From Nemertoderma westbladi (taxonomy: Eukaryota > Animalia > Xenacoelomorpha): DNA of 64,000 nt. Under the pieces are notes generated by a model. That model did no database searches, was not told the origin of the DNA, and worked only from the letters and a program-made list of their open reading frames with translations. Each line of letters opens with the position of its first letter. Position 1 is the first letter of the stretch. The stretch is from the NCBI GenBank assembly GCA_032718475.1, contig JAUCBJ010001802.1, forward strand, positions 62,001-126,000, in the 5' to 3' direction. Positions 2,567 through 31,300 of this stretch are shown in pieces. A program made the translations under genes and the position numbers.

Positions 2567-2718
2567 TCTGGCTCTGGCTGTAGGCTACTGCAGTAGTGTC
2601 AGACTTTTGACTCTGACTGGTTGTTTGGTTCTGGTGCGGCGGTCTATTTGACCATCGAGGTAACTGGGGGCGGTGACTGGGGGGAAAATTTTTTTACCAC
2701 AATTTTATATTTTGATAT

Positions 2719-5700: not shown

Positions 5701-6021
5701 AACCTAATCGGTTTAGGGCCCTGACCGTCCAGATTGTTTTCTAAAAAATGTCCTAGAACAAAAAACATTTGTTCTAGAACATAATTTTTTAAAAAAGAAT
5801 AGCTAATATATTCTGGAACATTTTCTATACAAATAGTAACAAGAACTAGGTACTACAAAATATTAATAGAGGGAAGTAGGATGTCGGAACCAGTGTCGAA
5901 ATTACTAGCTAAACCTACCTAAAACACTAGCTAACATACAATTTTGTATCTTACCTAACGAGGATGCTTCAATTACGTCCATTGACCAAATTGCAGCAAA
6001 CGAAAATTTATAGAACTCTCC
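2719..6021. mobile_element. Foldback-type element with long (about 250 bp) imperfect inverted repeats
   Basis: About 2719-2970 is the reverse complement of about 5750-6021 (e.g. cactggttccgacatcctacttcc / ggaagtaggatgtcggaaccagtg); no TSD found. Confidence 0.7.
4430..5270. repeat. Diverged tandem duplication, period about 466 bp
   Basis: aagttgcccct...taatagaagtcgatt...atcgggggtctcaaa at 4441 and 4907. Confidence 0.75.
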
Positions 6022-6589
6022 CCGTTAGGGCATTCCGCAGGGGGGGGGGGGGGGGGGGGGGGGCGTAGCGACGGGGAGAGGGGGACGTTCCCCCGGTAGC
6101 ACAACCCAGGGGCGCTGAAATGTCAGGGAAAATGTCAGGGAATTCTTGTATAAATAGGACAAATCCGTGAAAATTCAAGCATTGTGATACAGTATTTAGA
6201 GGACATGTGTCATAAGCGAAGTGCACTCTATCAAACTTGTGTAAAATAGATTTTGATTTAGTTATACAGTATACTATTGGATATATACTATTTAAGAAAA
6301 CACGTCATAAAATGATCAAAAATGATTAATTCGATTATTAAAATCTATATATTTGATCTTTTTTTAAAACCATATCAGATAATTCATAAGTGTGAATTTA
6401 CTAAAAATAATAAACTATTTTTAATAGATAATTCGAAAATAAGAAATCATATATCTATCCAATAATTTCAGTTTTCTGCAAAAATTGAGGTAGTAGTCGG
6501 GGGGAGGGGTTATGCAAATAGGTGTAGTTGAATTTTTGACCCTTTCATTTTTTATTTATGTTCACAGTAAAAAATTTATAAATTAATTC

Positions 6590-9500
6590 CCCCATATTCG
6601 CTAGTCCTTGCCATTGTCCTGGTACTCTCTGTTCGCCATATTCGCTCCTCCTTGCTGTTGTCCCGGTACTCTCCATTCGCTGTATTCGCTACTCCTTGCC
6701 GTTGTCCCGGTACTCTCCGTTCGTCATATTCACTCCTCCTTGCCGTTGTCCCGGGTACTATCCATTTGCCGTATTCGCTCCTCCTTGCCATTATCCCGAG
6801 TACTCTCTGTTCGCCGTATTCGCTCCACCTTGCCATTGTCCCATGTACTTTCCGTTCATCATTTTCGCTACTCCTTGCCATTATCCCAGGTACTCTCCAT
6901 TCGCTGTATTTGCTCCTCCTTGCCATTGTCCTGGTACTCATACTCTCCATTCGCCATATTCGCTCCTCCTTGCCATTGTCCCGGGTACTCTCCATTTACC
7001 GTATTCACTCCTCCTTGCCATTGTCCCGGGTACTCTCCATTACTGTATTTGCTCCCCCTTGCCATTGTCCCGGTACTCTCAGTTCGCCATATTCGCACCT
7101 CCTTGCCGTTGTCCCGGTACTCTCCATTCGCCATATTCGCCCTTCCTTGCCGTTGTCCCGGGTACTCTCCATTTGCCGTATTTGCTCCTCCTTGCCATTA
7201 TCCCGAGTACTCTCTGTTCGCCATATTCGCTCCTCCTTGCCATTGTCCCAGGTACTCTCTGTTCATTGTTTTTGCTACTCCTTGCCATTATCCCGGGTAC
7301 TCTCCATTCGCCGTATTTGCTCCTCCTTGCCATTGTCCCGAGTATTCTCTAATTGCCGTATTCGCTCCTCCTTGCCGTTGTCCCGGTACTCTCAATTCGC
7401 CATATTCGCTCCTCCTTTCCGTTGTCCCGGGTACTCTCCATTTGCCGTATTCGCTCCACCTTGCCATTATCCCGAGTACTCTCTGTTTGCCGTATTCGCT
7501 CCTCCTTGCCATTGTCCCAGGTACTTTCCGTTCATCGTTTTCGATACTCCTTGCCATTATCCCAGGTACTCTCCATTCGCTGTATTTGCTCCTCCTTGCC
7601 ATTGTCCTGGTACTCATACTCTCCGTTCGCCATATTTGCTCATCCTTGCAATTGTCCCGGGTACTCTCCATTTGCCGTATTCGCTCCTCCTTGCTGTTGT
7701 CCCAGTACTCTCCATTCACTGTATTCGCTCCTCCTTGCCATTGTCCCGGTACTCTCTATTCGCCATATTCGCTCCTCCTTGCCGTTGTCCCAGGTACTCT
7801 CCATTTGCTGTATTCGCTCATCCTGGCCATTATCCTGAGTACTCTCTGATTGCCGTATTCGCTCCTCCTTGCCATTGTCTCAGGTACTCTTCGTTCATCG
7901 TTTTCGCTACTCCTTGCCATTATACCGGGTACTCTCCATTCACTGTATTTGCTCCTCATTGCCGTTGTCCCGGTACTCTCAGTTTGCCATATTCGCTCCT
8001 CCTTGCCGTTGTCCCGGTACTCTCCATTCGCCGCATTTGCTCCTTCTTGCCATTAACCCGGGTACTCTCCATTTGCCGTATTCGCTCCTCTTTGCCATTA
8101 TCCCGAGTACTCTCTGTTCGCCGTATTTGCTCCTCCTTGCCATTGTCCCAGGTACTCTCTGTACATCGTTTTCGCTACTCCTTGCCATTATCCCGGGTAC
8201 TCTCCATTCACCGTATTTGCTCCTCCTTGCTGTTGTCCTGAGTATTCTCCATTCACCATATTCGCTCCTCCTTGCCATTGTCCCAGGTACTCTCCATTTG
8301 CCGTATTCACTCCTCCTTGCTGTTGTCCCGGTACTCTCCATTCCCCATATTCGCTCCTCCTTGCCGTTGTCCCGGTACTCTCCGTTCGCCATATTTGCTC
8401 CTCCTTGCCATTGTCCTGGTTACTCTCCATTTGCCGTATTTGCTCTTCCTTGCCATTGTCCCGGGTACTCTCCATGCGCCGTATTTGCTCCTTCTTGCCA
8501 TTAACTCGGGTACTCTCCATTCTCCATATTCGCTAGTCCTTGCTGTTGTCCCGGGTAATCTCCATTCGCTATATGAGCTCCTTCTTACCATTATCCCGGG
8601 TACTCTCTGTTTGCCGTATTCGCTCCTTCTTGCGATGGTCCCGTGCACTCTCCGCTCCATTCGCCGTATTCGCTAGTCCTTGCTTGCTGTTGTCCCGGGA
8701 ACTCTCAATTTGCAGTATTCCATATTCGCTCCACCTTGCCATTGCCCCAGGTACTTTCTGTTAGCCGTAATCACTCCACCTTGCCATTGTCCTGGGTACT
8801 CTCCATTCGCTGTATTCGCTCGTCCTTGCCGTTGTCCCGGGTACTCTCCTTACGCCGTATTCGTTCCTTCTTGCCATTGTCCCGGCTACTCTCCATTAGC
8901 CGTATTTGCTCCTCGTTGCCGTTGTCCCGGTACTCTCCATTCGCCATATTCGCTCTTCCTTGCCGTTGTCACGGGTACTCTTCATTTGCCGCATTCACTC
9001 CTCCTTGCCATTATCCCAAGTACTCTCTGTTTGCCATATTCACTCCTCCTTGCCATTGTCCCAGGTACTCTCTGTTCATCGTTTTTGCTACTCCTTGCCA
9101 TTATCCGGGTACTCTCCATTCCCCATATTTGCTCCTCCTTGCCATTGTCCCAGGTACTCTCCATTTGCCATATTCGCTCCTCCTTGCCATTGTCCCGGGT
9201 ACTCTCCATTTGCCATATTCGCTCCTCCTTGCCATTGTCCCAGGTACTCTCCATTTGCCGTATTCACTCCTCCTTGCTGTTGTCCCGGTACTCTCCATTC
9301 GCCATATTCGCTCCTCCTTGCCGTTGTCCCGGTACTCTCCGTTCGCCATATTTGCTCCTCCTTGCCATTGTCCTGGTTACTCTCCATTTGCCGTATTTGC
9401 TCTTCCTTGCCATTGTCCCGGGTACTCTCCATGCGCCGTATTTGCTCCTTCTTGCCATTAACTCGGGTACTCTCCATTCTCCATATTCGCTAGTCCTTGC

Positions 9501-11392
9501 TGTTGTCCCGGGTAATCTCCATTCGCTATATGAGCTCCTTCTTACCATTATCCCGGGTACTCTCTGTTTGCCGTATTCGCTCCTTCTTGCGATGGTCCCG
9601 TGCACTCTCCGCTCCATTCGCCGTATTCGCTAGTCCTTGCTTGCTGTTGTCCCGGGAACTCTCAATTTGCAGTATTCCATATTCGCTCCACCTTGCCATT
9701 GCCCCAGGTACTTTCTGTTAGCCGTAATCACTCCACCTTGCCATTGTCCTGGGTACTCTCCATTCGCTGTATTCGCTCGTCCTTGCCGTTGTCCCGGGTA
9801 CTCTCCTTACGCCGTATTTGTTCCTTCTTGCCATTGTCCCGGCTACTCTCCATTAGCCGTATTTGCTCCTCGTTGCCGTTGTCCCGGTACTCTCCATTCG
9901 CCATATTCGCTCTTCCTTGCCGTTGTCACGGGTACTCTTCATTTGCCGCATTCACTCCTCCTTGCCATTATCCCAAGTACTCTCTGTTTGCCATATTCAC
10001 TCCTCCTTGCCATTGTCCCAGGTACTCTCTGTTCATCGTTTTTGCTACTCCTTGCCATTATCCGGGTACTCTCCATTCCCCATATTTGCTCCTCCTTGCC
10101 ATTGTCCCAGGTACTCTCCATTTGCCATATTCGCTCCTCCTTGCCATTGTCCCGGGTACTCTCCATTTGCCATATTCGCTCCTCCTTGCCATTGTCCCGG
10201 TACTCTCCGTTCGCCATATTCGCTCCTCCTAGCCATTGTCTCGGGTACTCCCCATTTGCCGTATTCGCTCCTCCTTGCCGTTGTCCCGGGTACTCTCCAT
10301 GCGCCGTATTTGCTCCTTCTTGCCATTAATCCAGGTACTCTCCATTTGCCGTATTCGCTCCTCCTTGCCATTATCCCAAGTACTCTCTGTTCGCCATATT
10401 CGCTCCTCCTTGCCATTGTCCCAGGTACTCTCTGTACATCGTTTTCGCTACTCCTTGCCATTATCCCGGGTACTCTCCATTCACCATATTTGCTCCTCCT
10501 TGCTGTTATCCTGAGTATTCTCCATTCGCCGTATTCGCTCCTCCTTGCCATTGTCCCAGGTACTCTCCATTTGCCGTATTCACTCCTCCTTGCCATTGTC
10601 CTGATTCTCTCCATTCTCCATATTCGCTCCTCCTTGCCGTTGTCCCGGTACTCTCCGTTCGCCATATTCGCTCCTCCTTGCCATTGTCCTGGTTACTCTC
10701 TATTTGCCGTATTCGCTCCTCCTTGCCATTGTCCCGGGTACTCTCGATGCGCCGTATTTGCTCCTTCTTGCCATTAACTCGGGTACTCTCCATTCGCCGT
10801 ATTCGCTAGTCCTTGCTGTTGTCCCGGGTAATCTCCATTCGCTATATGAGCTCCTTCTTACCATTATCCCGGGTACTCTCCATTTGCCGTATTAACTCCT
10901 TCTTGCGATGGTCCCGTGCACTCTCCGCTCCATTCGCCGTATTCGCTAGTCCTTGCTTGCTGTTGTCCCGGGAACTCTCAATTTGCAGTATTCCATATTC
11001 GCTCCTCCTTGCCATTGTCCTGGTACTCTCCATTCGCTGTATTCGCTCCTCCTTGCCGTTGTCCCGGGTACTCTCCTTACGCCGTATTTGTTCCTTCTTG
11101 CCATTGTCCCGGGTACTCTCCATTCGCCATATTTGCTCCTTCTTGCCGTTGTCCTGGGCACTCTCCATTCGCCGTATTCGCTACTTCTTGCCATTGTCCC
11201 AGGGACTCTCCATTCGCTGTATTCACTCCTCCTTGCCATTGTGCTGGGTACTCTCCTTGCGCCGTATTTGTTCCTTCTTGTCATTGTCTCGGGTACTCTC
11301 CATTCGCCGTATTTGCTCCTTATTTCCATTGTCCTGGGCACTCTCTGTTCGCCGTATTCGCTAGTTCTTGCAGTTGTCCCGAGTACTCTCCG
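6590..11392. repeat. Satellite array with a 44-45 bp unit (ccgggtactctccattcgccgtattcgctcctccttgccattgtc) and a 957-bp higher-order duplication
   Basis: About 100 tandem units; identical variant blocks offset by 957 bp (8540/9497, 8643/9600). Confidence 0.95.
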
Positions 11393-11975
11393 TTTTTGCT
11401 TTTGCTTTTTAGTATTAGATATCTGAATGTTTTGTTATCAGATTGTTTTCAAATTTTGAATAATTTTTAAACTAAAAACACCAATATCTCTGGCTATTTT
11501 AGTATCTTATTGAATTCTGTAAACGCCATTGTGTTTTTGTGAGATTATTGCATCTAATTAATCTGGTTTTGAATTTGAGTCGTGTACCCCATTCTTCTCA
11601 TTCGGAGTCTAGAAACTTCGATTTTATATATTCCAAGTTGGTTCAATTTTGTTATAAGTCTACTCTAGGCCTACGTATCTATAAAGTCCCATTTCAACAC
11701 TACATTGATATATATTTGGTACGGAAAGGAATCTATTTACAAAAATAGAAATTCCCATGGAAAAAATTTCCCGGCATAAATGGAAATGCCTGAGGCATAG
11801 CTGTAAAAGAGCTGAAATAATTTCATTGCTGTACATTGTAAGATTATTTTTTAAATCTGAAATATAATACTAAGTAGTTCTTTCAACATTGCGGGACTAA
11901 TAATCGAAGGAAGGACTTTAGACACTCACACGGTATAAACGTGGGATAGGCCTATGCATGAATTTGAGAAATTAA

Positions 11976-12870
11976 GGGGGGGGGGGGGGGGGGGGGGTGG
12001 GGTATACCCTCCATCAGGTAAAATTTTCAAATTATTGTTTCTTTATCTCACCTAGAGCAGAATTTAATGAGGATTACAAATCTGAAAACCGCTTAGTGAG
12101 ACCTCTTTCAGTTCTCGAGTTATCACTGTTTTTCCGTATGACGGTCTGTCCGTCAAATTGTAAGAAAGACAGAAGACCGACAGACAGACAGATAGACTAG
12201 ATTCCACTAAAAATTAAAACTGACATCGGAAATGAAATCAGCGACCTCGAAAACCCCAGTAATGAACATTTTAGCTCGTTGGTGTGCATCATTCGTGCCA
12301 GAAATAATTAACCAACCAGAACACAGACAGCCAATTTTGGCGGGACGGTTTAAACTTTGAAGGGCATTTTCTCGGAATGACAATTTTCATTTTCAAATTA
12401 CTACTCCTCCGTCATTTTTCAACCAATTTTCTTCGTTTATGGCTCATTCGAACGAGCTTTGGAAGCTCTTTAAAAGTTATCTTATGGAATTTTGATAAAT
12501 ATTACCATTTTTTCTAATTAGCCATTTTTAATTAAAAATATGATAATTAATTAATTAAAATAAAATTGGCTAATTAAAAATTCTATAAGATAACTTTTGT
12601 AGAGTCGATCACGCTGAGTCCAAAAAAAATTGGTTTCAAGAAATTTGGACCAAAATTGAGGGACTAGTAGCAATTTTAGTGAAATCTTTAATTCCTCCGC
12701 CAGCCGCTAGGGGGAGGCTACAAATTTTCAAATTTTACTATAAAGGCTATTTGGCCTTCCATACAGTGGTTGACCATGACAAAATAGCAATATTATCATT
12801 TAACACTAATTGACAGCCATTTTAAAAAAAGGTTCATGGGGGGGTATACCCCCCCCCCCCCGCCCCCCCC
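11976..12870. mobile_element. Non-autonomous Kolobok-like DNA transposon
   Basis: TTAA at 11972-11975 and 12871-12874 flank G-run/C-run termini with gggtataccc; same end style as the Kolobok at 56078. Confidence 0.75.
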
Positions 12871-13103
12871 TTAATTGGGTCTGCATCATTTAATTTCAAA
12901 TTGAAAACATAAAATATGTAATTTACGTTTGATTGGTAAATATACTTACTATGAAATTAAAAATCACAAACATAATATCTTGTAACTTCGTTAGTAGAAT
13001 TTCAAACGATTACATTTTTACAAATAGCCCCTACAGTAAATCACACAGTAAGCCGCAGGTCATCGGATAGGCATCCAATAATGTTCAGCGTTAGATACAA
13101 TTC

Positions 13104-13342
13104 TTAAATATCAAATGTTTCCTCCCTTCCAACCCGAATCCTTTTGGCCCTATCATTACGTTTTTTATTTTTCTCATTTTTGTTTCTTTCCCAATTTGAT
13201 AACATCCTCAGAGGTATATGCATCAACCCCGCCAATATTAATATCGCACCGGGAATGGCGAACGAGAGAACATAGTTTTTACATTGGTCCATATTGCATT
13301 CACCGTCTATCGTATTTTTGCTTGAGCTGTCCGCCAAATAAC
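13104..13342 (-). CDS. SLC16-like transporter, last coding exon (7)
   Basis: ttgtattcag|GTTATTTG acceptor; (G)YLADSS...TM12...stop. Confidence 0.85.
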
Positions 13343-16300
13343 CTGAATACAACAAAAATACAGCATAATGTATGTAGGCTTGGGCTTACTGTAGATTTGA
13401 GTTTTCAATTTCGCGTGAATACTGTTGGGGCCTATATATTTCACAAATCTTACTGCTGATCATGACCATTTACGAACATGAACTGAATACAGGGTCCGAT
13501 CCATCGAAAAATCACCAACCATTTGTTACTACAGTAGATGAACTGCAAATAAACACTTACCAGTTGTAGTAGAACCATATAAATTCGGTTGCCACACATT
13601 CCTAAAGCCTGTCTAACTGGAAGCGAATAGAGAGGGGCAGGATAACTTGAGGCAAATCCGAAAAGCGAATTAATATCTATGCTAATATCATTTGAGGGAA
13701 AGGAGCAGGTTAAATCTAAACAATAAACTAAAGTCAATAGAACCGGTTAGGCCTACCCCCTAGCTAAAAGTTTCAAAAACGTGTTTTTTATTGCATCTGG
13801 AGCAGAATTTATGTGGATTTCAAATCTGAAAACCGCTTAGAGAGATCTATTTTAGTTCTCGAATAATCGTGGAATAACTGTCTGCCAATCTATCTGTCAA
13901 AAGGTAATCCAGTCAGACAGACAACGAACAGATAGACACACGACATTCCACCAAATATTAAAACTGACATCGGGAATGAAATCAGCGACCCTGAAAACCA
14001 CCATAAATATAATTTTAACTCGGCGATGTGCTTCTTTCATGTCAGACACCATTAACCAGCCAGACACCATACAGGTAGGTTTGCGCGGGATGTTTTGAAA
14101 TTTGAAGGCGATTATCTCAGAATGAAAATTTTTTGCTCGAAAAATACTACTCATCCGCAATTTCTTAACAGTTTCTCGCAATTTATGCTTTATATGAAAG
14201 GTAATTTCATAAGCTTCAATAAATTTCACGCACTTTTCTTAATTTAATAAATATTTCCCCATTTTTGAATGAAAAATTACAAAAAACATGGGGTTTTTCA
14301 GTTTTTTAAATTTTTTTTTGATGATTCTCTTTTCGATAGAATATCGTTTTCTATGCATTTCTTGGAGACATCTGCAAAATAAAAAAAACAACAGGGTGGC
14401 TACCCCCCCCCCCCCCCCCCCCCTCACTTAAGTATATACTGTAGAATACTTATATTTCGGATACAAAAGTTTAGCCTAAACAAAGGCCATTATTTAGGCC
14501 TAGTTTCTCCCGATACCATCTATCAGTTTCAAACACAGTACATTTAAGCCAAACTCCCGTCCTTGCAAGGTCACCCAGCCTGTGAATTAAGACTACCTAA
14601 CTATAGGTCAACTTTACAGTAAGCAACGCAATGCCAATTCTCCACACAACTTATCATTAATTTTGTATCGGTGAAAAATTTTGAGAATAAAAAAAATAGT
14701 TTTCTTAAATGAACCAGTATGCTGTGTACTACTGTAAGCTTATACCTAAATTTATAATACTTATTAGAGTAAAATAATCACCGTATTAGTAAAATAAACT
14801 TTACAAACTTTAAACTTTATAAACATTACATTACATTAGGGATTACATAACATTACATTACGTTACAGACTATGTACTGGTTCAAACTACGAAGTTAAGT
14901 TAAGTTTCGAATATAATATAATATTATGTCGTTGCAAAATTGAAATAAAGTAATAAAGTAAATAGTAATAAAGTACAGTAAATAATACAGTAGGCCTACT
15001 GTAACGCCAGTGTCTGTATGTACAGTAGAGTAATTTAAACATACCAGCGAAGGGTGTTCCCGCGAGTATAGGTGCTCCCATAAATAGCAATATCCATCCA
15101 AACATAGTACTCGTACTGATACTACTTGTTGACATCAGCTCTTTGACCAATAACATTCTCGATGTAATGAAATAAGCTAAAATTTAGGAAAAATAATGTA
15201 CAACAGGCGCCTGTATATTAAAACATTATTATTATTGTTGTATACAAAATAAGTTAATTGCGACACAAAGTATGGTTTGGAATGGTGTTCCCCCTGAGGT
15301 CTTTAAAATACCTGAGTGTTTAAAGCTCATCTATCCCATCATAGTAGACATGTACCGAACAACAAGAGTCCCACAAGAAATGAAAACAAATAAGTTGGTG
15401 CCAGTTCCCAAGAAGGGCAACCTAACACTCTATGGTTCTTTTCGGGGAATCTCATTGATCTCGATTGCTGCAAAGCTATACAATAGGATTCTATTAAATC
15501 GCATCAGGGATCCCATTGAGAGACTGCTCCGTGGAAATCAGAATGGGTTCCGTAAAGGTCGTGGTACCATGGAGCCCATTCTGGCACTTAGAAGGATAAT
15601 TGAAGAATTATCAAAAAAGAAAGACAGGCATCTGGCTGTTATCTTTGTTGACTTCTTCAAGGCCTTTGATTCAGTCTCTCGCTCACGTATGTTCTGTTCA
15701 GCATACTTTCATTATATGGGATTCCTGATGAAATTATTGCAGCAATAAGATCAGTATACGATGGTTCGACAACATTTGTGTCTACTGTTGACGGTGACAC
15801 AGAACCATTTGAAGTGTTATGGGGCGTCCTCCAAGGAGACACACTTGCACCATTCTTGTTCATTATTGTGGTTGACTATGTTCTACGCATGTCCTTAGAT
15901 CATCATAATGATGATGGGGTGATGATAACTCCACCTACTGGCTCCAGAAGTCGAGGAAATCCTGCCAAGTACCTAACTGATCTAGACTTTGCTGATGACT
16001 TAGGAGTACTCTCAGAATCACTAGAGGGAGCCCAACGGCTCCTCAGCTCATTAGAACATGCTGCTTCTAGTGTTGGTCTTTTTATTAACTCCAGAAAGAC
16101 CAAAATTTTGACAGTTAACTTTGAAAGTCCTCAGCAAGTCTCTGATCGGATGAGCATAAGCTCAAAGGATGGTATGCTTGAGCATGTGGACGACTTCTGT
16201 TACCTGGGATCATGGATCCGGAAGTCAGGTGAGGACCTTCGAATACGTAAGGGCAAGGCATGGGCAGCCTTGAATAGGCTTTCCAGGATTTGGAAGTCAC

Positions 16301-19300
16301 CGAGAATTAATCGGAAACTTAAGGTCCGATTATTTAGAGCAGCAGTAGTTCCAGTACTCCTCTACGGGAGTCCATGCTGGGCTCTAACTGCTGAGGACAC
16401 CAAATCTCTGGATGGCACATTCACAAGAATGCTACGCCGGGTTCATTGTGTCAAGTACAATGCACACATCTCCAACCAGACACTATATAACATTGGAGGT
16501 GTCTCATTGGTTCCCCCAAGCTTGACACTAGAACAAAATCGCCTCCGCTTTGCAGGACATTGCTTTCGCCGTGAGGACCAGCCAGTGCATAATCTTGTAC
16601 TTTGGCAGCCTCATGGAGTGAATAAGCATGGTGGACAGCCCATGACTTTCTTGAGACGCATCTTAAAGGACACTGGCCTTGAAGATGCGGATGATCTAGC
16701 AAATGTCATGGGTGATAGGGAGTTGTGGCGGTGCAATTTTATTGACAAGCCGGCACAGCATTCTTAAAAATGCAGCTGCAATGCAGCATGCCGATCCTAG
16801 GTGTAGTAGTAGTAGTATGGTTTGGAATAATGACAAGAAAAAAATATTGTTATAGTACTGGTAATCATTTTTACCGGTACTTTAAGCACCATTTTCGTAT
16901 ACCATTGTCTGCCATTCATGTCATACCTAGTGACGGTGTCCTAGAAGGCACGATACGGAACCGACCTTTTATTTCATAAAAGAACAGTGTAAAAGCTTTT
17001 GTGGGATATAACTGGCCCTTTTGCTTCGCAATCCAGTTTCCCTCAATGCGCTCAAATACTCTAAAGAAAAACTCCCTAACTCAAATGATGCAAGCTACCG
17101 GCTGATTGGCTGATTTGCTGTACGTATGGCCTCTTTGTTCTGTTCGATCAACCAACCAGAGCAAGGTCAACCAAGCAGAGTGATTCATCCTGTGTGTTGG
17201 CTAAGGGCTGCAAAAATCCGAATAGTTCGGCATTTAGACATTCGTGGAATCTGTGGAATATGGAACTCTGCCAATGAGAGCTTTTCCTCTTTGTGTTGAA
17301 AGCTTGCAACAGCTCACAGGGTTCAGTGTGTTGGTTTTCCTGATGCCATGAACATCAGCTATGGAATTATTCTGTTTTATTCCAACATTAGAACGGCTTT
17401 AATTATGAGAACACATAACTGTTACCGGTACGGTACGGTACGGTACGGTACGGTACGGTACGGTACGGTACGGTACGGTACGGTACGGTACGGTACGGTA
17501 CGGTACGGTACGGTACGGTACGGTACGGTACGGTACGGTACGGTACGGTACGGTACGGTACGGTACGGTACGGTACGGTACGGTACGGTACGGTACGGTA
17601 CGGTACGGTACGGTACGGTACGGTACGGTACGGTACGGTACGGTACGGTACGGTACGGTACGGTACGGTACGGTACGGTACGGTACGGTACGGTACGGTA
17701 CGGTACGGTACGGTACGGTACGGTACGGTACGGTACGGTACGGTACGGTACGGTACGGTACGGTACGGTACGGTACGGTACGGTACGGTACGGTACGGTA
17801 CGGTACGGTACGGTACGGTACGGTACGGTACGGTACGGTACGGTACGGTACGGTACGGTACGGTACGGTACGGTACGGTACGGTACGGTACGGTACGGTA
17901 CGGTACGGTACGGTACGGTACGGTACGGTACGGTACGGTACGGTACGGTACGGTACGGTACGGTACGGTACGGTACGGTACGGTACGGTACGGTACGGTA
18001 CGGTACGGTACGGTACGGTACGGTACGGTACGGTACGGTTCGGTACGGTACGGTACGGTACGGTACGGTACGGTACGGTACGGTACGGTACGGTACGGTA
18101 CGGTACGGTACGGTACGGTACGGTACGGTACGGTACGGTACGGTACGGTACGGTACGGTAAGGTACGGTACGGTACGGTACGGTACGGTACGGTACGGTA
18201 CGGTACGGTACGGTACGGTACGGTACGGTACGGTACGGTACGGTACGGTACGGTACGGTACGGTACGGTACGGTACGGTACGGTACGGTACGGTACGGTA
18301 CGGTACGGTACGGTACGGTACGGTACGGTACGGTACGGTACGGTACGGTACGGTACGGTACGGTACGGTACGGTACGGTACGGTACGGTACGGTACGGTA
18401 CGGTACGGTACGGTACGGTACGGTACGGTACGGTACGGTACGGTACGGTACGGTACGGTACGGTACGGTACGGTACGGTACGGTACGGTACGGTACGGTA
18501 CGGTACGGTACGGTACGGTACGGTACGGTACGGTACGGTACGGTACGGTACGGTACGGTACGGTACGGTACGGTACGGTACGGTACGGTACGGTACGGTA
18601 CGGTTCGGTACGGTACGGTACGGTACGGTACGGTACGGTTCGGTACGGTACGGTACGGTACGGTACGGTACGGTACCTACTGCTGTATTGCACATTATTT
18701 ACTGCTATTTACTGTTTGTTATTAATTGTATCAGTTGTTTACATATTGTTATTTGGAGAATAACGATAAATGATCAGAAACCCTGATCTTCTTGATACAC
18801 TAAGGTTAGAGAGACCGGTTACATATAGCAATTGCGACTTATATTATCGTGGTTTGTAGTGAATTGAATGCTATTTTATAGGCCCTACAAATGTCGGTTG
18901 CTATTCTCTTTATATATGATTAAAATCAGTGACTATCGGCAATTCAGTGTGCAGCGGTGTGCAATAGTCTGTATGTGCTTGTCCGCGTAACAAAGCATCT
19001 CCTAAAGAATGCGCCTTATGTGTAACTTATAATCCATTCCGTTGTGTTTAGTGTAAGCCATAGCTCTGTTTATATAGATAGAGCGCCACGTCCTAAAGGA
19101 ACTGCTAATATTTCCCGAAAGTGAATGATATTTGTCAGGAATTATATTAACGATCAATCGAATAGTACGGTAGGCCTGCACCGCAATCAAATTAAAGCAT
19201 CCGAATCCAGTCTCCCGGGTATATCCAGCGGGTGAATGGTCGCGCATAGACTGGCTTCGGCTAATGTTGGATTTATTTGTGTCAAATACTTGTCATAGGC

Positions 19301-22300
19301 TAAAGTCGATTTATAACCTAGAAGACATATAGATTTGGCGGGTTAAACTGCCAAAGGTCTTAAAAGCGCGAACAGTAACAGTTATTAATTCTGATTGCAG
19401 TGTAGGCAATAAATACAGTTTACTATTGTTCTGGTAAGAACAATAACAGTTATTGCTTCTTTATTGCCGTAAGCAATAAAGCTGAAGTACCGGTCGACCG
19501 GTAACCTGTAGGCCTAACTACCTAACCACCGGAACCGGTACTTACAGCAGTATACTGGTATAGGTACATCAGTATTATTTCGATTGTGATATATTGTATA
19601 TTGTAGGCTGTTAGGGGATTAGGGATTGATCACCCCTTATTCCTTTGCATGGTTTACTTATTTCTGTCAGTTTTATTTACTAGTAGGCTAATATTGAGCA
19701 GAAGACGTGTAAGCCTGCTCAGATCGTACAGATAATTTGTAGGCTGGGCTGTTGTCTGACTGTTGATAGGTCTGAACGGATTGCAGTGCATGTAGAGTGT
19801 ATGTCCGATAAAGTGCCGGTTAGGAACGTAGGGGCAGCTAGAGCTGTAAGGTAACCCCCCCCCCCCCCCCCCCGAAAGAATAAGTCGTACTACTAGGTTA
19901 GAACGCATACTAACTAACCATTTCGGAGTCTGCATGTCCTGTAGTTTATTTAGGCTTGATAGTAGTCTGCCAGCGTTTGGTCTGTACTTTGTTTGTGTAG
20001 TCTGTACAGGTACCGTAATATTTCTTATTCAGATAATTTATAGGCTAGATTGTTGTCTGGCTGTTGTTAGGTCTGAAGAGATTGTGGTGTGTGTAGAGTG
20101 TATGTCCGATAAAGTGCCGGTTAGGAAAGTAGGGGCATCTAGAGCTGTAAGGTAAATCCCCCCCCGAAAGAATAAGTCGTACTACTCGGTTAGAACGCAT
20201 ACTAACTAACCATTTCGGAGTCTGCACATACTGTAGTTTATTTAGGCTTGATAGTAGTCTGCCAGCGTTTGGTTTGTATTTTGTTTGAGTAGTTTGTACG
20301 GGTAGCGTAATATTTATTATTCAGAGTTTATGCGATTATTCGCAACATTCATAACCCCAAGTTTATTCCCACAGTAATTGTGCTTGTTATACATACCGTT
20401 ATAGTTAAATTAACCCCGGTACTACATAAGGGCTGCTTGGCGTAGGTAAAGACTGGTGATTTTGTGCCCCGGTCACTCCAGCAGATGCCGTGGTTCCTTT
20501 AGCTGTACAAGTATTTCTAACTGCTAGTTATTTGTTGTACAAGTACTTGTACCTAATTTAGGGTTTAGTGTACAGTGCTTTCCGAAGGTAATTAGTGTGT
20601 AGGCAGTATATTTGTGTTGTAAAGTGGTTAATAGGCATGTTGGCTCTGGTAGGCCGCGGTAATTAACTTCCAGGTAGGGACACTCCGTGATACATAACGT
20701 AGTACTTATAGCGATACGGCTATAAGTCGTCAGACGGTGGTATTTTTCCTATCTGGACAACGCAATATATTTACTACTGGTTTATTATTTTCAAATACCG
20801 TAATATCCTGTCTGTTGTAATAACCAGATTTTCTAACCCTTTGTTAGGCTGTTTTGTAGATTCCCTGTAAAATTACCCTAAAAATTCATATTTGTAATTT
20901 TTGTGTTTATTTAGAGATGGTAATCTCACCCCGAATTGTACGTAATTTGTAGTATTAAGTAACTTAGGTAAATTAGAATTATTTGTTTTAGTGTCCAACA
21001 AGTAGCACTTCACTGAGAGCGCACAGCTTCTGTGTAGTGACTCCTCCCCAGAAATAATAACATTTATTTCAAATATTGACAAAACCCATTAAAACGGGTA
21101 TATATATTATAAATCAACTCAAACGATTTATAAATAGTAGGCCTGCCATACAACAACTAGGTCTCAATATCAGTTGGACTACTGCTCAAATAACGGTAAT
21201 AAAGTAAGTTAAAGTAACCAAGTAACCCCTAAAATTCAGAAATACAATTATTCTAAAATAATTGACATACCGGTATTTACAATAGGCTTATTATATTTAT
21301 TTCTATAAATTTAGGCTGCAATTATACCGGTATTCTGTAATTAATTCTAGTTCATAATTATACTTATATATACTATAAGTGTAAGCTGTATACCGGTATT
21401 CACGATAGGCCTATTATATATTTATATATATTTGTGCTAAAATTATATACCGGTATTCTGTGACAAACATAGTCTGTAATAATACTTATATATATATATA
21501 CTATAAGTATACCGGTATTCTGATACATTGTATATATATCACGTTACACTGAGTAACGGTATCGGTAATTAATTACTAGGCTAACAGTTGATACTGAATT
21601 ACTAGACTTTCTTTAACTGTAATATAGCAGTAGGCATTCAACTGTACAATCAAATATGTCTGGCACAAAACGGGCACTGTCAGATAGTCTTTTGGAAGGT
21701 GTTAGAATGAGTCTTCGACTTGGACAGCGTCTTGAAAGGATGGAAGACAGAAAAGCAGCAGCAGTGGCAGCGGCAGAAGCGGAAAGAAAAGCGGCAGAGG
21801 CGGTGGCAGAAGCAGAACGGAAGGCGTCTGAAGCGACTGCCCAACTAGAGCTGGAGAGCCTTCGGGCGAGACAGGGATTTGCCTCCTCCGATGAAGGTGA
21901 TATAAGAGATCCCGAAAGTAGAGGTAATAAATCTCGTTCAAGCAGGCGTAGAAGAATGCCACACTGTCCGAAGTTACCTAATTTGCCTCCTGCGGTGAGA
22001 CTAGCTAGCACAGACTTAGGTAGTACAGAACCCACAGACCAAATTATTACAGTAGAAAGACTCCCTACTATAGTAGATGAGCCTGAAATAATTAGGCCTG
22101 TTCTCGAAGCCACCCCTTCGGTGATAGAGACACCTGTACTCCCAGGACCTACCTCTAAATTCCCTTTGCACAGCACAAAACTACCTGTGCCCAGTAGGAC
22201 TGTTCCCGAGTCCGAACCCATCCTGGACGCCGAGCGAGATATCAAGAATTTATCGCCCGTCGTCTCTCGCTTGCCCGCTACTACGTTGGCGACTCCCGCT

Positions 22301-25300
22301 TCGGCGGTCGAGTGGGTAGCTGAGGGACGACGGGAGATGGGTCTCCTGCTCGGGCAGCTGAGGGAACATTGTAAATGTTCCTCCCAGCAGGTCCGGGAGT
22401 TGGAAGGGACTGTTCAGCAGTTAAAGGGAGCAGTAAGAGAGGGTAGGTTAGCATTGCAAGAAGTGCAGCAGAATATCGCGTCAGAATGCGATAAGTTAGT
22501 AAATTTACAAAAGGGTATACCACCACCCTCTGTAACAATGTGTCAACCTGTTAGGTCTGAAGTATTTCATGCGCAAGGTGTGGAGCCTACACGCATATAT
22601 ACTGCTAGTGAAGTAGAAACTCCTATAGTAAACCCTATTAAGGGTAATTATAAACCTGTTGACAGTGATATTCCATATAGACTTGATAATAATCCGAGAA
22701 ATTTATATACCGATAACTCGATATTAAATAATACGATGGCCCAAGAAAGTTTTACGCGTCAAATGGCTAGAACCGAAGCCCGTCAAGCGGTAAAGATGGG
22801 AGAGATCGTCAAGTTCAATGGAGATGAGATGAAATGGTTACCTTTTAATGAATATTACAAAGATAACATACAGAACTCTGTGTTATCTAACGGAGAAAAG
22901 CTTAGATTCCTCATCGAGTGCTTGGAAGGATCTCCCAAGTTAATGGCGTTAAAGTTTATTGGACATCCAGATGGATTAAGACAAGTTTGGGATACATTAA
23001 ACATCAGGTATGGTAATAGGAATAACATAGCTAGGTATTTGTATGCAAAATTAATGGCGCCCCGAAAGTTTCTTAGCAGCGGGATAATAGAGTTTTCCGA
23101 TGAGATTCAAGAGATCTGTAGACAATTAGATTGGTTAGGTAAGTCTCGTGAATACCAGAATTCTATGGTTGTAGGAGCCTTAGCATCAACTCTGCCAAAG
23201 GGTGGAGTAGGTACACGCTGGGACAAGAAAGTGTTATATATGATGGAACAACAACGACGAGACCCTACCATGGCTGATCTCATGTCATTCTTGGATGGAG
23301 AGGTAAAATTACAGCTCCTAAAGCAGTCCCGAGAGAAGACCCTGGAGAACAAGGTGAGTGAAAAACCCGTTTCTAGGAGAAAAATAATACCAGTGTGTTA
23401 TACCGACGAGGGCGAAAGCCAGGCTTCTCAAGAAGAAGACAGCGGGAAAGACACTGAAAGATCTTACTATGACAATAAAACCCTAAAGGACGTAAGTAAA
23501 TTCAAGTCTCGAACCAATGACAGGAGAGAACAGGTAAGAAAAACTCCTCCTACGTCTCCTAAGAGAATTAATGTAAGAAATCCCGAGGAAAGAACGAGCG
23601 TGCACCACACAGCACATGTTAAAGTAAGTAACATCAAGCCCAAATGTGTGTTGTGCGACGGGCCCACCGTTTAAATGTGTGTAATGAATTCCTAAAGAAA
23701 TCATTAAAGGATAAACGTGAAGTCATGTGGGATAAGCGGTTGTGTTATAATTGTCTCAGACGAGGACACCAACGGCGAACCTGTTACTCCGACGCAAGGT
23801 GTGCGAAGTGCGGCGCGAAACATCATATTTTGTTGCACACCGAATTCGAAAGAAACAGCCCGAGTCAGGTAAGTGAGTCCGAACTACATGTCCAATTCAG
23901 TGATGTGAACGACACTGACCAAAGTTCTGAGATGGAAGGATTCTATACTATACGGACGAATTCTCAGACGAAAACGAATCCTGTTACTTAATAAATACCG
24001 CAGTGTATCGAGCACTTACGTATGAGAAGGAAACCGACAGTGAGCTCCCCCTAACTACTTCTGATCGACAACCATCTTGGAAAGCGCCAACTTCCAATGT
24101 AGGAATCCGAGAATTTCCTGTAGTACAGTTAAGGGTCCACGGACCTAAAAGGAGTTATATAGTGAACGCCCTCCTTGACTCCGGTAGCACAGGAACATTC
24201 ATCGACAAAGAACTAGCCGAAGACATCTTTGCTGGACAACCCAAGTTCCGAACTAAGCTAAACATGTCAGGAATTATGCAGGTTTGGAAATCTACCGTAA
24301 TAGCGGATTATTATGTAGGCGCGTTGTCCACCCCCCAGGATGAACTAGGAGAACACAGCATAAGGTCAGTAAAAATGGTAAAAATGGTAGCACTTGGCTA
24401 CCAGCCAAGTGGAACCTTATAACTGGGATGAGGACGATTTCACCCAGCAGCTTGAAATACCTAGATTCAACACCGATTACCCTGGAGTCCAAATACTAAT
24501 CGGTCAAAATGCGCATGAAGCGCTCGAGACATTGGAGAAACGGCCTGCTCAACCGCAACCACTACAAGCCTATGCGGGAAGAACTAGAGTGGGTTGGTAC
24601 TTTACTGGCCCTTCCCGTAGAACTCTCATGGAAAGATTACCGAAAGATCAGGTATATCAAGTAAGAGAATGGGAAGATGAGAGCAGTGAGTTAGACGATC
24701 CAACTAAGGGAAGACCATACTCCTCAGATAATGACGACATCAACTCCAATGTAGATCAATGGAGACATTGCCCCGAGACGATTAATCTAGCCGACATTGC
24801 CTCCAGTGGAGCAACTCCTCAAGAACTGACAGATACTCCAGACTGGTTAGGTGAACCCGACTTCCTAAGTAAAGAAGATGAATGGCCTCCCCACCTTAAC
24901 CCGGCTGAGATTAGACAGGCCAAGGGAGCAGAGAAAGTAACACAACCACTCAATCGCCCAGCTGGTCGTTTATGTTTACTGGAAAGAGACCGAAAACTGT
25001 CCGGAAACTATGGAAGGCAAGATACTCTTCCCACGATCACCTCCCTAATCCAACAAATATCTAGGGACTCCATAACGTAACAACATACGGAGTGGGTGTG
25101 TGACTATATTATTTTATATTTATTTTATTATTTTATATTATGTATGTATTATTATGTAATTTTATTATAATCGTTTTCTTTAATTTTATTTAGTCAAATG
25201 TTATTTAGCGATTATTTAGTAGATTAGTGCAATATATTAGTGTTTATTACTTAATTACTTATATATTATATTTAGTGCGACGGCGAGAAATAATTCTTTT

Positions 25301-28300
25301 TCTCTTTCCTTACTGTCCGTATCATATTATAAATACAATATTATTTTTTATTATTATATATACAATATAAATAAATATAAAATTATGTAAGATGAAATAT
25401 CCGTACTTATTAAAGTACAATAAAGCTCCTACTATATTCAAGTATTATTGGTAGGCAGAGTATTAGGAATGCAAAGTTCAGATCCTCGTGTCTCGGCTAA
25501 ACCAAGCTCTGGGTAGACCTTGGAAACGACTTGCCTCTTCTCACTGACATTGCTTCGTGCGATATTGCTCTCATACCGTATATTGAATAATACATATAGT
25601 AGCGTGATGTCCCTTTAACAGTAGCGTAAAACGCAAAATAAATCTGTTAAACCCTTTGACCATCTGCAATTCTAGTCGATTAAGATATCGCGGCACCCAC
25701 CGATATACTTGAAAGACAAAATTCTAGAATCAGTGGTTAACGTCCCCAGACAAGTTCTGGAATAAACTGGTGCCCATCCTAAATATTAATTATTAATATT
25801 TACAAAATCTGTCAAATTTCAGATCCTTTAAAATTCTAGTCGATTAAGATATCGTAGCACTTACCGATACTCTTAAAAGGACAAATCCCTAGAATCAAGG
25901 ATCCCAGTCCCCAGACTTGTTCTGGAATAAAATTGTGTCTATTTAATATTAAATAATAAAATTACGGGAATAAATTTAAATTCATCTTTTAATGAATTTG
26001 ATAAATTGTTATTTTATACAATTTATAATATTCCCAAAATTCCATTAATTAATAGATCATGGGAGCGGAGATTCACCTATTAAGTGTATTAGTGTGCGAG
26101 AATCTCCAATATAGAGTCAATAGCCGATAAAATTCATAAAATCATATATAAAGATGATATTGACCATTAAAGACTTACTATTAAATAGCATCCCAGATCT
26201 GTATGCATGGGAATTACCCTAATTCTACCGCTAGCTTTCCATAATGTCACCATAGCAACAACCACGCTAGAATTAGAAGCGAGTTAACAGAACAATAAAA
26301 AGCTTGCTCATTGAATAGCATACGGAATAAATAACACACCGCTAGTATCCAAGGATACATAATAACAACGTGACATTCTGGAAGGCACTTGACTAACGGA
26401 CAAATGACCCGAATGTGTGATAGAATGTGTACCATTTGTGACAGTTACGTGGAATTTGTGCGTTTGTAGATGAATGTTACTACTAAGGTGTGTTTACAGT
26501 AGCGAGTCGCAATTGTGAAAGTAGCCCTAACTCTCCAGTAAGAACCTGAAGTATATCTAAGCCTTTGGGACGGACGGTGGAGTGACTCGTGCTGGTTGTT
26601 GTAGTCGTTGTGCAGCTACGACGTTGGCGATAGGCACATCGGCGAAAGTACACCAGCGCTGAGGATCTCGCACTGTCCGGGGGCAGAGAGGGGTAGGCAG
26701 CGACGCCCGCTCGCCTAAATATAAACTCATTATAATATGGATAAACTTATATAGCAGATATGATTGAGTTGATAGAAGATGATCTTGGTATCAGGGAGCG
26801 ATATACTCTACCTTTACAAGCGTTTGTTGATAGCTTGATACGCGGCGACGCTGGTCCAACTACTACGGAGGACGATGGTCGTTATATCGAACCGCCAATG
26901 TCCCAGGAACAACTTACGCGTGAATTGGACTATAGAAAATTCACCGCTCGCTATACGCATCGTAATGGTACGTATATGGACTTCTTAACTACTGGTCATC
27001 CTATCGACCTACACGATACGAACGATATAGACACCGAAAGGGAAATGGTTTTATTTAAATATCATACCCAGCGGAAGCGGAACGATAAACTGAGATTCGA
27101 ACACGAAAATTCTATTCGAAACCGACTCGAAAGTGAAGATGTTGAAGAGCCGGATAAACGCAGCGACTTCAACAGAATATCTGGAATTCTTGAGAGAAAC
27201 ATATCTCAATATTACCAGTCAACAGAATCTAGAAACTCGATATCTTCAAGGTATACATCATGACCGCATGGTAGAACTCAAACGGCTCTATTCCACTATG
27301 ATGTATCTTACCGCTGATCGACCGCTACCTGTTGCACCGGATAGCTTCGAACAGATGGAGGAATATTGTAAACTGGAGAAAGATCACTCGCGTTTCCCCT
27401 ACAAGACGTGCGTCTTTGGTATTATTGCGATGAATGCCCTAGACCCAACCAACAAACGGAAAGACCTAAACATCCGCGGAGACGTTGCATTAAACACGGT
27501 TTTACTCGCTATATTTACGGGAGTTTCGAGCGAAACTTGTTCGATGTATCACCTACGCTCGCTCGATTCAAACGATCCTTAAATAAACCTATGATCCGAG
27601 TTCCGGAATACTCGATCAGACCTCCTCACTCCCTAGTGAGAACCCAGACTCTTGATCCTAATAGTATCATGGATCCTCCCGAGCTGTACTCACTGTTCAA
27701 AGATCTAGTGCTACCCGAACAGTTAGTCGGTGGCACTCTGATTGTGGGCTCCCTAAATATTCGCCCATCTTACCTAGTCGGATTGGGACGCGGACATCTA
27801 ATATCGTCATTCAACCGTATCATCGTCCCTGTTTAACCCGATACAACCTGTCACTGAGGCGGAGGAGAGAGTTGTACGAGACGCGTTGGACACTATTCGT
27901 CAAAAGATCGGAAAATGAACCTACAATTGTTTAGAGAAACGTAAATTGCGGCAGCAAGTCCAAGCGGTAAACGAATTAACTTTATCTCAGTTCGATCAAG
28001 AAATCCAGAATCTCTAAGAAGATATCGAACTTGGACGACCCTATTCTCTGCGAGAGTTTTTGGATGAACGTATCCAGCTACGAGCGGAGGAAAATCAGCT
28101 CGAGGAGAACATATCGAAACGGCGGATACCCCGACCATAATCCTACACCTTCTGATGCAATCATATTGCACCCTTCACCCAGGAGTTATAGCCCTCCTAG
28201 TAAAGTGGCTCCCCCCAAAGAGAAAAGGACTCTTGCTAGCTTTAAAAAACTGCGTAAACGCCGTCCACGCAAGAAAGACTAACTGTTTAGAGTATTTTTA

Positions 28301-31300
28301 TATTTTAGAAACTGTGATTTTTTATATTTTATAGAATTAAATCCCATTTTCTGGGAGCGGTGTAAAAGCTTTTGTGGGATATAACTGGCCCTTTTGCTTC
28401 GCAATCCAGTTTCCCTCAATGCGCTCAAATACTCTAAAGAAAAACTCCCTAACTCAAATGATGCAAGCTACCGGCTGATTGGCTGATTTGCTGTACGTAT
28501 GGCCTCTTTGTTCTGTTCGATCAACCAACCAGAGCAAGGTCAACCAAGCAGAGTGATTCATCCTGTGTGTTGGCTAAGGGCTGCAAAAATCCGAATAGTT
28601 CGGCATTTAGACATTCGTGGAATCTGTGGAATATGGAACTCTGCCAATGAGAGCTTTTCCTCTTTGTGTTGAAAGCTACCTGCAACAGCTCACAGGGTTC
28701 AGTGTGTTGGTTTTCCTGATGCCATGAACATCGGCTATGGAATTATTCTGTTTTATTCCAACATTAGAACGGCTTTAATTATAAGAACACATAACTGTTA
28801 CCGGCACGGTACGGTACGGTACGGTACCTACTGCTGTATGGCACATTATTTACTGCTATTTACTGTTTGTTATTAATTGTATCAGTTGTTTACATATTGT
28901 TATTTGGAGAATAACGATAAACGATCAGAAACCCCGATCTTCTTGATACACTAAGGTTAGAGAGACCGGTTACATATAGCAATTGCGACTTATATTATCG
29001 TGGTTTGTAGTGAATTGAATGCTATTTTATAGGCCCTACAAATGTCGGTTGCTATTCTCTTTATATATGATTAAAATCAGTGACTATCGGCAATTCAGTG
29101 TGCAGCGGTGTGCAATAGTCTGTATGTGCTTGTCCGCGTAACAAAGCATCTCCTAAAGAATGCGCCTTATGTGTAACTTATAATCCATTCCGTTGTGTTT
29201 AGTGTAAGCCATAGCTCTGTTTATGTAGATAGAGCGCCACGTCCTAAAGGAACTGCTAATATTTCCCGAAAGTGAATGATATTTGTCAGGAATTATATTA
29301 ACGATCAATCGAATAGTACGGTAGGCCTGCACCGCAATCAAATTAAAGCATCCGAATCCAGTCTCCCGGGTATATCCAGCGGGTGAATGGTCGCGCATAG
29401 ACTGGCTTCGGCTAATGTTGGATTTATTTGTGTCAAATACTTGTCATAGGCTAAAGTCGATTTATAACCTAGAAGACATATAGATTTGGCGGGTTAAACT
29501 GCCAAAGGTCTTAAAGGCGCGAACAAACAGTATCGCCACTGTATGGCCTTTCTCCATTATTGCCATCACAACTCTACCACGCGGCAATATTGCCAATCGG
29601 TGTTCGGACACTTCCCCCCCCGAACACTTCCCCCCCGGACACTTCCCCCGGACACTTCCCCCCCCAGACACTTCCCCCCCGGACACTTCCCCCCCGAGCG
29701 TCGACCTGTATTATGTGTTCAGCATTACATATTGATATACATATTGCTATACATACTATAGAGATATTATACACACTACATATTAAATTTCCTGGTTACT
29801 TGCAATATTTTTAATAGGATTTTATTGAATTATATAATATTAGTAATTTATATATTAATTTGGTTAACATTCAATACAGCTCCTACTTTAGGCTTAGTCA
29901 ATTTATTATCTGATGATACAAACATAATTGATTATTTCAAAACGGTCTCAAAGTCTTTCACCACGGGCACACAGGGAATGCCGGGGTTTGGGGGCGGTAG
30001 CCCCCAAGAAAAGAAGCGGGGGTTTGGAGGCGGCAGCCCCCATGAAAAGAAGCGGGGGTTTGGGGGCGGCAGCCCCCAAGAAAAGAACCAGGTGTTTGGG
30101 GGCGGCAGCCCCCAACAAAAGGAGCGGGGGTTTGGGGGCGGCAACCCCCAATTAAAAGAAAAACAAACAATATTTGACTATAAAAATGTTTCTTTTATAA
30201 TTTTGAAAAAACTTGTCTAGGTGCAACTTGTCCTGTAACCATCTTTAACTTTTGTTTATTGCTTTGATGCACCCAGATTAATTTTAACACTTTAATTGGG
30301 GGGGAAGTGTCAGGGGGGCAAGTGTCCGGAGGGAAGTGTCCGGGGGGGAAGTGTTCTACTTGGGCGGGGGGGGGGGGGAGTGTCCGGGGGGGGAACTGTC
30401 CGGGGGGGGGGGGGGAGTGTTCTAGATCCTTGCCAATCAACATTTTGACGTCACCCACCCCCCCCCCCCCCGGCCTTGGGATATCCCTGTGCGGCTGTAG
30501 CTGGGATAGCTTAATCGAACTGGACTGGCTTACTATAAGGCCCTGTCTACTGTAGCCCTCGCCTTACATTTATTGGTCGTGTGATTAATTTGTTGATTGA
30601 TTGTCAGATGCATACATAATTGCTTTGCTGTCATTGGTTGTTCAACCTGTTGTTACCTGAATCTGTTTGATTGTAGCATATTAGGTATTCCGTATTGCCC
30701 TTACCACTTGAAGATGTGGATAATCTCGCGTCATGGAAGATAGGGAGGTGTGGCGGTGCAACTTTGTTGTTTTTATATAAGCCGACATAGCATTTAATGC
30801 ACGCTGCATTGGGCTTGCATTGTGGATTGCTTGCATTTTGGTGGCAAAATATTTTTGTTAAACCATCATATAATCTCAATGTGCAGTTTCAATGCAACAG
30901 GCCAATTATAGTACTTTGAATTCAGACACTTGGTGTCCCAGACACCAGGATTTCACTTTTCGGTCGACTTTTTATTGGAATTTTATAAATGAAGATTTTT
31001 TATTTTATTAAATTTATCTTTATTAAGTGTCTCATAGCGCGTATTTCTGTCTTATAACCTGTACATATACTAATTCGTACTAGATTCAGCCCTTCTGTAA
31101 CCTGTGTTTTTGGTGAAAACCTGGTATTCTTCACATGGGGGTAACTGCAAAGTGAAATATAACGGCCAAAAGTCTGGTATTCTTCACATGGGCCGTTTTT
31201 TTCTACCCCCAATGACTACATTAACTGACATGTCCTAAGTTGTATAAAATAACTGACTTTCACTTTAAGAGTTGAAAAGCTATTTCATTGTATTCCAATT

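Follow-up and report, generated by a model that had tools for sequence, protein, structure and literature searches.

We analyzed a stretch of 64,000 nucleotides (nt) from Nemertoderma westbladi (GenBank assembly GCA_032718475.1, contig JAUCBJ010001802.1, positions 62,001 to 126,000 of the forward strand; this whole stretch is the window, in whose coordinates positions are given), which contains a Bel/Pao retrotransposon bounded by long terminal repeats (LTRs). The 11 nt that directly follow the 5′ LTR of this element, where one would expect a primer binding site (PBS), are the exact reverse complement of a segment inside the LTR itself, i.e., of a putative primer carried by the element's own RNA. 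The features that define the element and these two sites, all on the forward strand (+), are as follows:

16983-16987 (+): left copy of the 5-bp target-site duplication (TSD) AACAG, with the right copy at 29526-29530
16988-19374 (+): 5′ LTR (TG..CA), lengthened by a microsatellite, last bases GCGAACA
17415-17425 (+): predicted self-primer ATAACTGTTAC, which recurs in the 3′ LTR at 28791-28801
17426-18677 (+): (ACGGT)n array with some 250 units; only the 5′ LTR has it at this length, the 3′ LTR having about 5 units
19375-19385 (+): 11-nt PBS GTAACAGTTAT, directly after the 5′ LTR end at 19374, with no TGG
21623-23868 (+): gag, with a DUF1759 domain and a triple Cys-His box, the first knuckle broken by a frameshift
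24075-24720 (+): aspartic protease region with ALLDSGS and LIG motifs, broken by frameshift
24742-24897 (+): remnant of the RNase H-integrase interval, aligned to library relatives
26745-28050 (+): broken reading frames, seen in the sequence before the polypurine tract
28349-28360 (+): polypurine tract (PPT), adjoining the start of the 3′ LTR at 28361
28361-29525 (+): 3′ LTR of 1165 bp, containing the primer copy (28791-28801)

The boundaries of the LTRs are fixed by the TG..CA ends, by AACAG on both flanks, and by the PPT before 28361; TGTAAAAG opens both repeats and GCGAACA closes both. We discarded a different placement, in which TGTTAC..GTAACA would be the inverted ends of the LTR, since the TSD and the PPT place the ends elsewhere. 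Microsatellite aside, the two LTRs differ by 7 substitutions in 1135 aligned bases and a 3-nt indel. The ACGGT array begins at the first base after the LTR primer site, i.e., at the predicted cleavage site, and may either have expanded after insertion or be an assembly artefact.

An earlier examination of these letters without database searches (the sequence-only reading) had named the element as Bel/Pao, and its protein signatures support this. The gag frame matches DUF1759 above the Pfam cut-off (PF03564, E = 1.4e-12), the translations contain a triple Cys-His box that includes the third knuckle CX2-4CX3HX4H and agrees with the definition in the accessible part of PMC554778, and the protease motifs ALLDSGS and LIG correspond to the LLDXG and LIG motifs defined in the same part of that paper. 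In addition, the Pao peptidase family was found in 13 of 18 library relatives scanned, and the 1165-bp LTR, with its PPT, falls within the Bel/Pao LTR range of 0.2-1.2 kb. In an alignment with the relatives' proteins, the post-protease region of the element is followed, after a skip at about 24740, by the short remnant of the RNase H-integrase interval; reverse transcriptase (RT), RNase H, and integrase are missing, and the element is therefore non-autonomous. The family is abundant: run X1 contributed 99,631 contigs that aligned to the window, and run X3 contributed 26,673. We class the element as a young, non-autonomous, high-copy Bel/Pao retrotransposon, which on its protein signatures is still Bel/Pao-derived despite its missing tRNA-type PBS. 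Bel/Pao elements are reported only from animals (PMC3601003). Word-index protein searches returned no gag relatives, the viral contigs searched held no relative of the element, an exact 22-nt LTR pattern was unmatched among metagenome contigs, and Rfam gave sub-threshold matches only, 15 of 16 of them on the microsatellite or its edge. The frames at 26745-28050 had no Pfam match and no usable Atlas match; contig depth in run X4 was several-fold higher over 26500-28600 than over the gag region, and this stretch may therefore be common to another family.

The sequence-only reading had also claimed that the 11 nt after the 5′ LTR are perfectly complementary to an LTR segment, that the 3′ C of this segment forms a pair with the first base beyond the LTR, and that the PBS is not of the TGG type. 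Each of these was confirmed: the match to 17415-17425 is exact, is exactly 11 nt long and sits at offset 0, and the first TGG after the 5′ LTR occurs at 19432. The chance of an 11-nt match is 0.0005 given the base composition of the LTR. Matches of at least 11 nt arose in 20 of 5000 dinucleotide shuffles of the LTR, with offsets of 0-3 allowed, and shuffled leaders reached 11 nt in none of 300 and none of 60 trials under two nulls. Among the difference rows listed from the contig alignment (40 of 2,406), none falls at the PBS or the primer site, which is no evidence of conservation.

RNA folding places the PBS among further predicted structures, and a second PBS-like site lies downstream of it:

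19174-19194 (+): LTR arm of a predicted stem between U5 and the leader (the U5-leader stem), overlapping ATTAAA (19191-19196), a likely poly(A) signal
19240-19245 (+): 5′ arm of a predicted 6-bp stem, pairing with 19366-19371
19366-19371 (+): 3′ arm of this 6-bp stem, which is stable in the fold, at the end of the LTR
19386-19407 (+): leader arm of the U5-leader stem, 22 nt, beginning at the base after the PBS
19443-19453 (+): second, palindromic PBS-like copy (within 19442-19454), complementary to the primer at 10 of 11 positions

The U5-leader stem comprises 20 bp (19 Watson-Crick and 1 G-U) at -28 kcal/mol, and was unequalled in 60 shuffles (0/60) and in 197 control windows (0/197). In the fold, the first six bases of the PBS are unpaired and 3-4 of the last five are in weak local pairs, with opening of all 11 bases costing 2.1 kcal/mol and the primer-PBS duplex gaining -11.7 kcal/mol. 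Given the positions of the stems, the gap between them ends where the LTR match ends, and the PBS is predicted to lie between two helices, as in the three-duplex "pretzel" layout of Tf1. An 18-nt tRNA primer would need to unwind the U5-leader stem. Since this stem overlaps ATTAAA, it may hide the poly(A) signal in the 5′ LTR.

Complementarity between PBS and LTR is also present in other Bel/Pao loci, in a form that would require splicing. Three polyproteins from the gag search were aligned, and with this alignment 80 metagenome loci were fetched; 55 of these were examined for LTR pairs, and the remaining 25 were excluded by eye as short or flankless. In 8 loci the LTR end was independently fixed by the repeat itself, and these were tested under a common rule that allowed any GT..AG intron and offsets of 0-4, against 60 shuffled leaders. 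One locus, L028, was missed by a strict donor rule and found when this was relaxed, and all were retested under the one relaxed rule. None of the 8 contains a TGG-type PBS, and in 7 of them, representing 7 of 7 families, the PBS matches 10-15 nt across a GT..AG junction of the locus's own LTR, a result reached by 0-1 of 60 shuffled leaders. The loci in which the PBS complements an exon-exon junction of the locus's LTR are:

L015, L017, L018, L021, L025, L028, L063
further such loci: L002, L003, L007, L012, L022, L029, L041, L062

In these loci exon 2 contributes 4-7 nt of the 10-15 nt junction matches. At the junctions of the 7 loci, the donors are GTAAG, GTGAG, or GTATG, and the acceptors are pyrimidine-rich. 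The pairing ends 0-4 nt from the LTR end, and when PBSs were swapped between families the match was at most 7 nt. Of the 13 primer positions, 3 are different between L025 and L012, and pairing is retained in both; the PBS of L041 and that of L062 are 11 nt long, lie at offset 0, and open with GTAA, as in the window element. In a blind scan, a spliced match was obtained for 4 of the 7 loci whose LTR start was known and for 4 of 29 others; the 25 blanks among these 29 may or may not contain a 5′ LTR. In the window element, the contiguous 11-nt match exceeds every spliced match in its LTR and needs no splicing, and this element is probably an intron-less form of the splice-built primer found in the other Bel/Pao loci. 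One of the fetched loci, L028, contains nested LTR elements at 2182-16895, with a Bel/Pao element lying within another LTR pair.

Our preferred explanation is that the element primes minus-strand synthesis with its own RNA and not with a tRNA, to which we assign a probability of roughly 0.78; the flanking predicted stems and the PBS-LTR matches of the relatives both support the likely self-priming that the sequence-only reading had put forward. Under this explanation, folding of the RNA would bring the LTR segment and the PBS together as a duplex between the two stems, and the RT/RNase H of an autonomous partner would cut after the 3′ C of the primer, these cleavage and priming steps being modeled on Tf1. 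Synthesis would begin at the LTR end, where the 3′ C of the primer meets the first base outside the LTR, the primer would be extended through about 720 nt of R-U5 (longer in the window copy owing to the microsatellite), and it would be restored from the 3′ LTR after strand transfer. A broader view, which we hold with little better than even confidence, is that much of Bel/Pao self-primes through internal RNA, mostly made by splicing, with the window family being an intron-less form that has the full pretzel and an outer stem masking the 5′ poly(A) signal.

The primer of Tf1 is 11 nt long, and priming in Tf1 is reportedly the subject of Levin 1995, Levin 1996, and Lin and Levin 1997. Elements of the Tf1/sushi group have a PBS complementary to an LTR segment and a three-duplex pretzel, according to the portions of 10.1101/2022.12.06.519325 and PMC4600332 that were available. 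The window element has in common with Tf1/Tf2 (Schizosaccharomyces pombe), Tj1, Tosmo1-3, and Tf1/sushi that it contains no tRNA PBS and an LTR-complementary PBS instead, and it resembles the Tf1 pretzel in two duplexes flanking the PBS, which here are predicted and of which the 20-bp stem is significant and the 6-bp stem is not significant alone. Unlike the Tf1/sushi Ty3/gypsy chromoviruses, it has a DUF1759 gag and a triple Cys-His box; unlike in Tf1, about 720 nt separate its primer from the end of the LTR, and this primer probably does not form the 5′ end of the RNA, and related Bel/Pao loci seem to assemble the primer by splicing. The sequence-only reading had set out self-priming as a trait of Tf1 and related Ty3/gypsy elements. 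It is indeed described there, but the accessible text of PMC6317226 also predicts it for copia TAR, and self-priming is thus not confined to Ty3/gypsy. In that text, self-priming is predicted for Tcn1 (gypsy) and TAR/Houba/Osr-1 (copia) from complementarity of at least 10 nt located 0-5 nt after the 5′ LTR, ranges within which the window element falls. It differs from these elements of plants in superfamily and host, and a splice-built primer is not described in the same portion of PMC6317226. The International Committee on Taxonomy of Viruses describes for Belpaoviridae an 18-nt PBS for tRNA-Arg or tRNA-Gly and a replication that is poorly understood (PMC8742986). The window element agrees with Belpaoviridae (Semotivirus) in LTR size, PPT, and gag and protease signatures (PMC8742986 and the accessible part of PMC554778), and departs from that description in its 11-nt self-complementary site without TGG and in its missing RT, RNase H, and integrase.

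Where transcription starts determines whether the primer is internal to the RNA or forms its 5′ end. The motifs that bear on this are the following:

17271-17275 (+): CCAAT motif, with a putative function, also present at 28644 (3′ LTR) and 63233 (a second, related LTR at 62946-64000, which is cut by the end of the window)
17323-17327 (+): TCAGT initiator-like motif, 90 nt before the primer, giving a candidate start at about 17325
17398-17409 (+): AT-rich motif that is conserved ahead of the primer, reading TTTAATTATAAG in both the 3′ LTR and the second LTR, with one change here

From these motifs, transcription would start at or upstream of 17415, most likely at about 17325, and the primer is probably internal to the RNA rather than its first 11 nt. 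We favor an internal primer because CCAAT and TCAGT point to about 17325 and because none of 12 related LTRs carries a TATA box in the interval 20-35 nt upstream of the primer. The second LTR also has TCAGT, 55 nt after its CCAAT, and TTTAATTATAAG stands just before the primer position; among the relatives, a TCAGT-like motif occurs at -92 in L028, -86 in L041, and -77 in L062, and nearer or not at all in the others. A primer that spans an exon joint, as in the spliced relatives, would also suit an internal position. A start at 17415, with the primer as the first 11 nt of the RNA as in Tf1, appears less likely. We also considered an intron downstream of the primer, with donor- and acceptor-like motifs seen by eye near 28955 and 29289; since a single replication cycle would eliminate such an intron, we discarded it for the replicating RNA.

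Several observations weigh against self-priming by the segment at 17415-17425. The AT-rich motif before the primer is possibly a weak TATA box, and if TATAAG, 11 nt before the primer, is such a box, the usual spacing would put the start a little downstream of the primer, which would invalidate the model; TATAAG departs from the TATA consensus and is altered in the 5′ LTR. Folding of the native 2.2-kb 5′ RNA pairs the primer with 18983-18992 and not with the PBS; the folding program cannot draw a pseudoknot, but this competitor is nevertheless present. Taken by itself, the 6-bp stem does not reach significance (13 of 60 shuffles), and the second site at 19443 also binds the primer, at -9.7 versus -12.0 for the PBS. 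Contig depth in run X1 is 31,886 in the bin with the site and 530,649-613,858 alongside, a drop that suggests that many copies may differ there. Among the relatives, L054 reaches 6 nt only, with its sister L063 (97% identical LTR) reaching 10 nt, and L032 and L004 gave no match in the blind scan. Finally, a gag/protease tree (349 columns) leaves the window element unplaced, with its grouping with the splice-primer loci neither established nor rejected (p = 0.204 in the approximately unbiased test), so the relatives show a signature common in Bel/Pao and not close kinship.

The alternative that survives best, which we nevertheless regard as improbable, is that the LTR-PBS pairing is real and selected but serves as a structural switch (packaging, dimerisation, 5′-3′ pairing, or polyadenylation control), with something else acting as primer. 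The near-palindromic PBS self-dimerises at -5.6 kcal/mol and has its palindromic copy at 19442-19454, the stem adjoining it covers the likely poly(A) signal, and with a downstream start the LTR segment would be transcribed from the 3′ LTR only, all of which would fit such a role. A switch does not account for the pairing stopping exactly at the first base outside the LTR, where priming must start, with the relatives 0-4 nt off; in addition, there is no other primer candidate, and in the relatives the pairing partner arises only after splicing.

We consider it very unlikely that the match is due to chance, or to two copies of a palindromic protein-binding motif, and that the PBS has decayed. 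The primer site and the PBS are both near-palindromes, their TAAC-N-GTTA core resembles Myb-type sites and is found three times (at 17416, 19376, and 19444), and 9 of 8956 internal positions match the LTR over at least 11 nt, a count that includes the PBS itself and overlapping positions. Compared as direct copies, however, the two sites are identical at 8 of 11 positions, and as inverted copies at 11 of 11, so that the three bases that break the near-palindrome are all complementary. The adjoining stem and the relatives are signals independent of this match, and since the element is young (7 changes in 1135) and abundant, its priming site should have worked recently, which counts against a decayed PBS.

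The CTGTTA core of the PBS resembles the anticodon loop of tRNA-Asn(GUU), and no tRNA genes were found within the window. Least probable of all is priming by an atypical host RNA, i.e., the 5′ half of a tRNA or some other small RNA whose end is complementary to the PBS, for although half-tRNA priming is reported for several copia lineages in the accessible text of PMC6317226, such a primer would leave the perfect copy inside the LTR unexplained, and the PBSs of the relatives vary by family in step with the LTR of each, contrary to what a fixed host RNA would permit.

Within the literature searched, with subscription papers, Repbase, GyDB, and supplements lying outside the search, we found no report of self-priming in Bel/Pao, and no link in print between splicing and reverse transcription through a splice-assembled primer. 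For example, the terms "primer" and "tRNA" are absent from PMC3118150 and PMC6238403, "PBS" and "tRNA" are absent from PMC554778, and PMC8220671 has generic mentions only. If the element does prime with its own RNA, self-priming lineages would exist in all three superfamilies of LTR retrotransposons, which bears on whether self-priming or tRNA-priming came first. Such elements would be free of the host tRNA supply and of control by tRNA fragments, and annotation that depends on a tRNA PBS would miss them. If the primer of the relatives is built by splicing, host splicing would license replication.

The second LTR shares 76% identity with that of the element across some 510 nt of the predicted R region, and the letters at its primer position are different; it is predicted to end about 150 nt beyond the window, outside which its PBS also lies. 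It carries AATAAA at 63976, the counterpart of the ATTAAA in the U5-leader stem. The PBS of this second family is predicted to be complementary to 63386-63398 (ATATCCTTTAAC), starting GTTAAAGG, or to a spliced junction in that LTR. About 500 nt of non-coding LTR (28850-29360 versus 63490-64000) show much stronger conservation between the two families than U3 does, and this conserved R region showed no shared reading frame, no codon-position bias, and no Rfam match.

Elsewhere in the window, a broken non-LTR-type RT (RVT_1 and DUF6451) at 15197-16767 ends about 220 nt before the element. The Mediator subunit Med21 is encoded at 391-957 on the minus strand in a single open frame, and fragments of a Mutator-like transposase are present at 56929-58420, also on the minus strand. 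Tandem arrays occupy 6500-11400, 34700-38000, 49100-53400, and 60370-60810, with units of about 45, 53, 21, and 74 bp, respectively.

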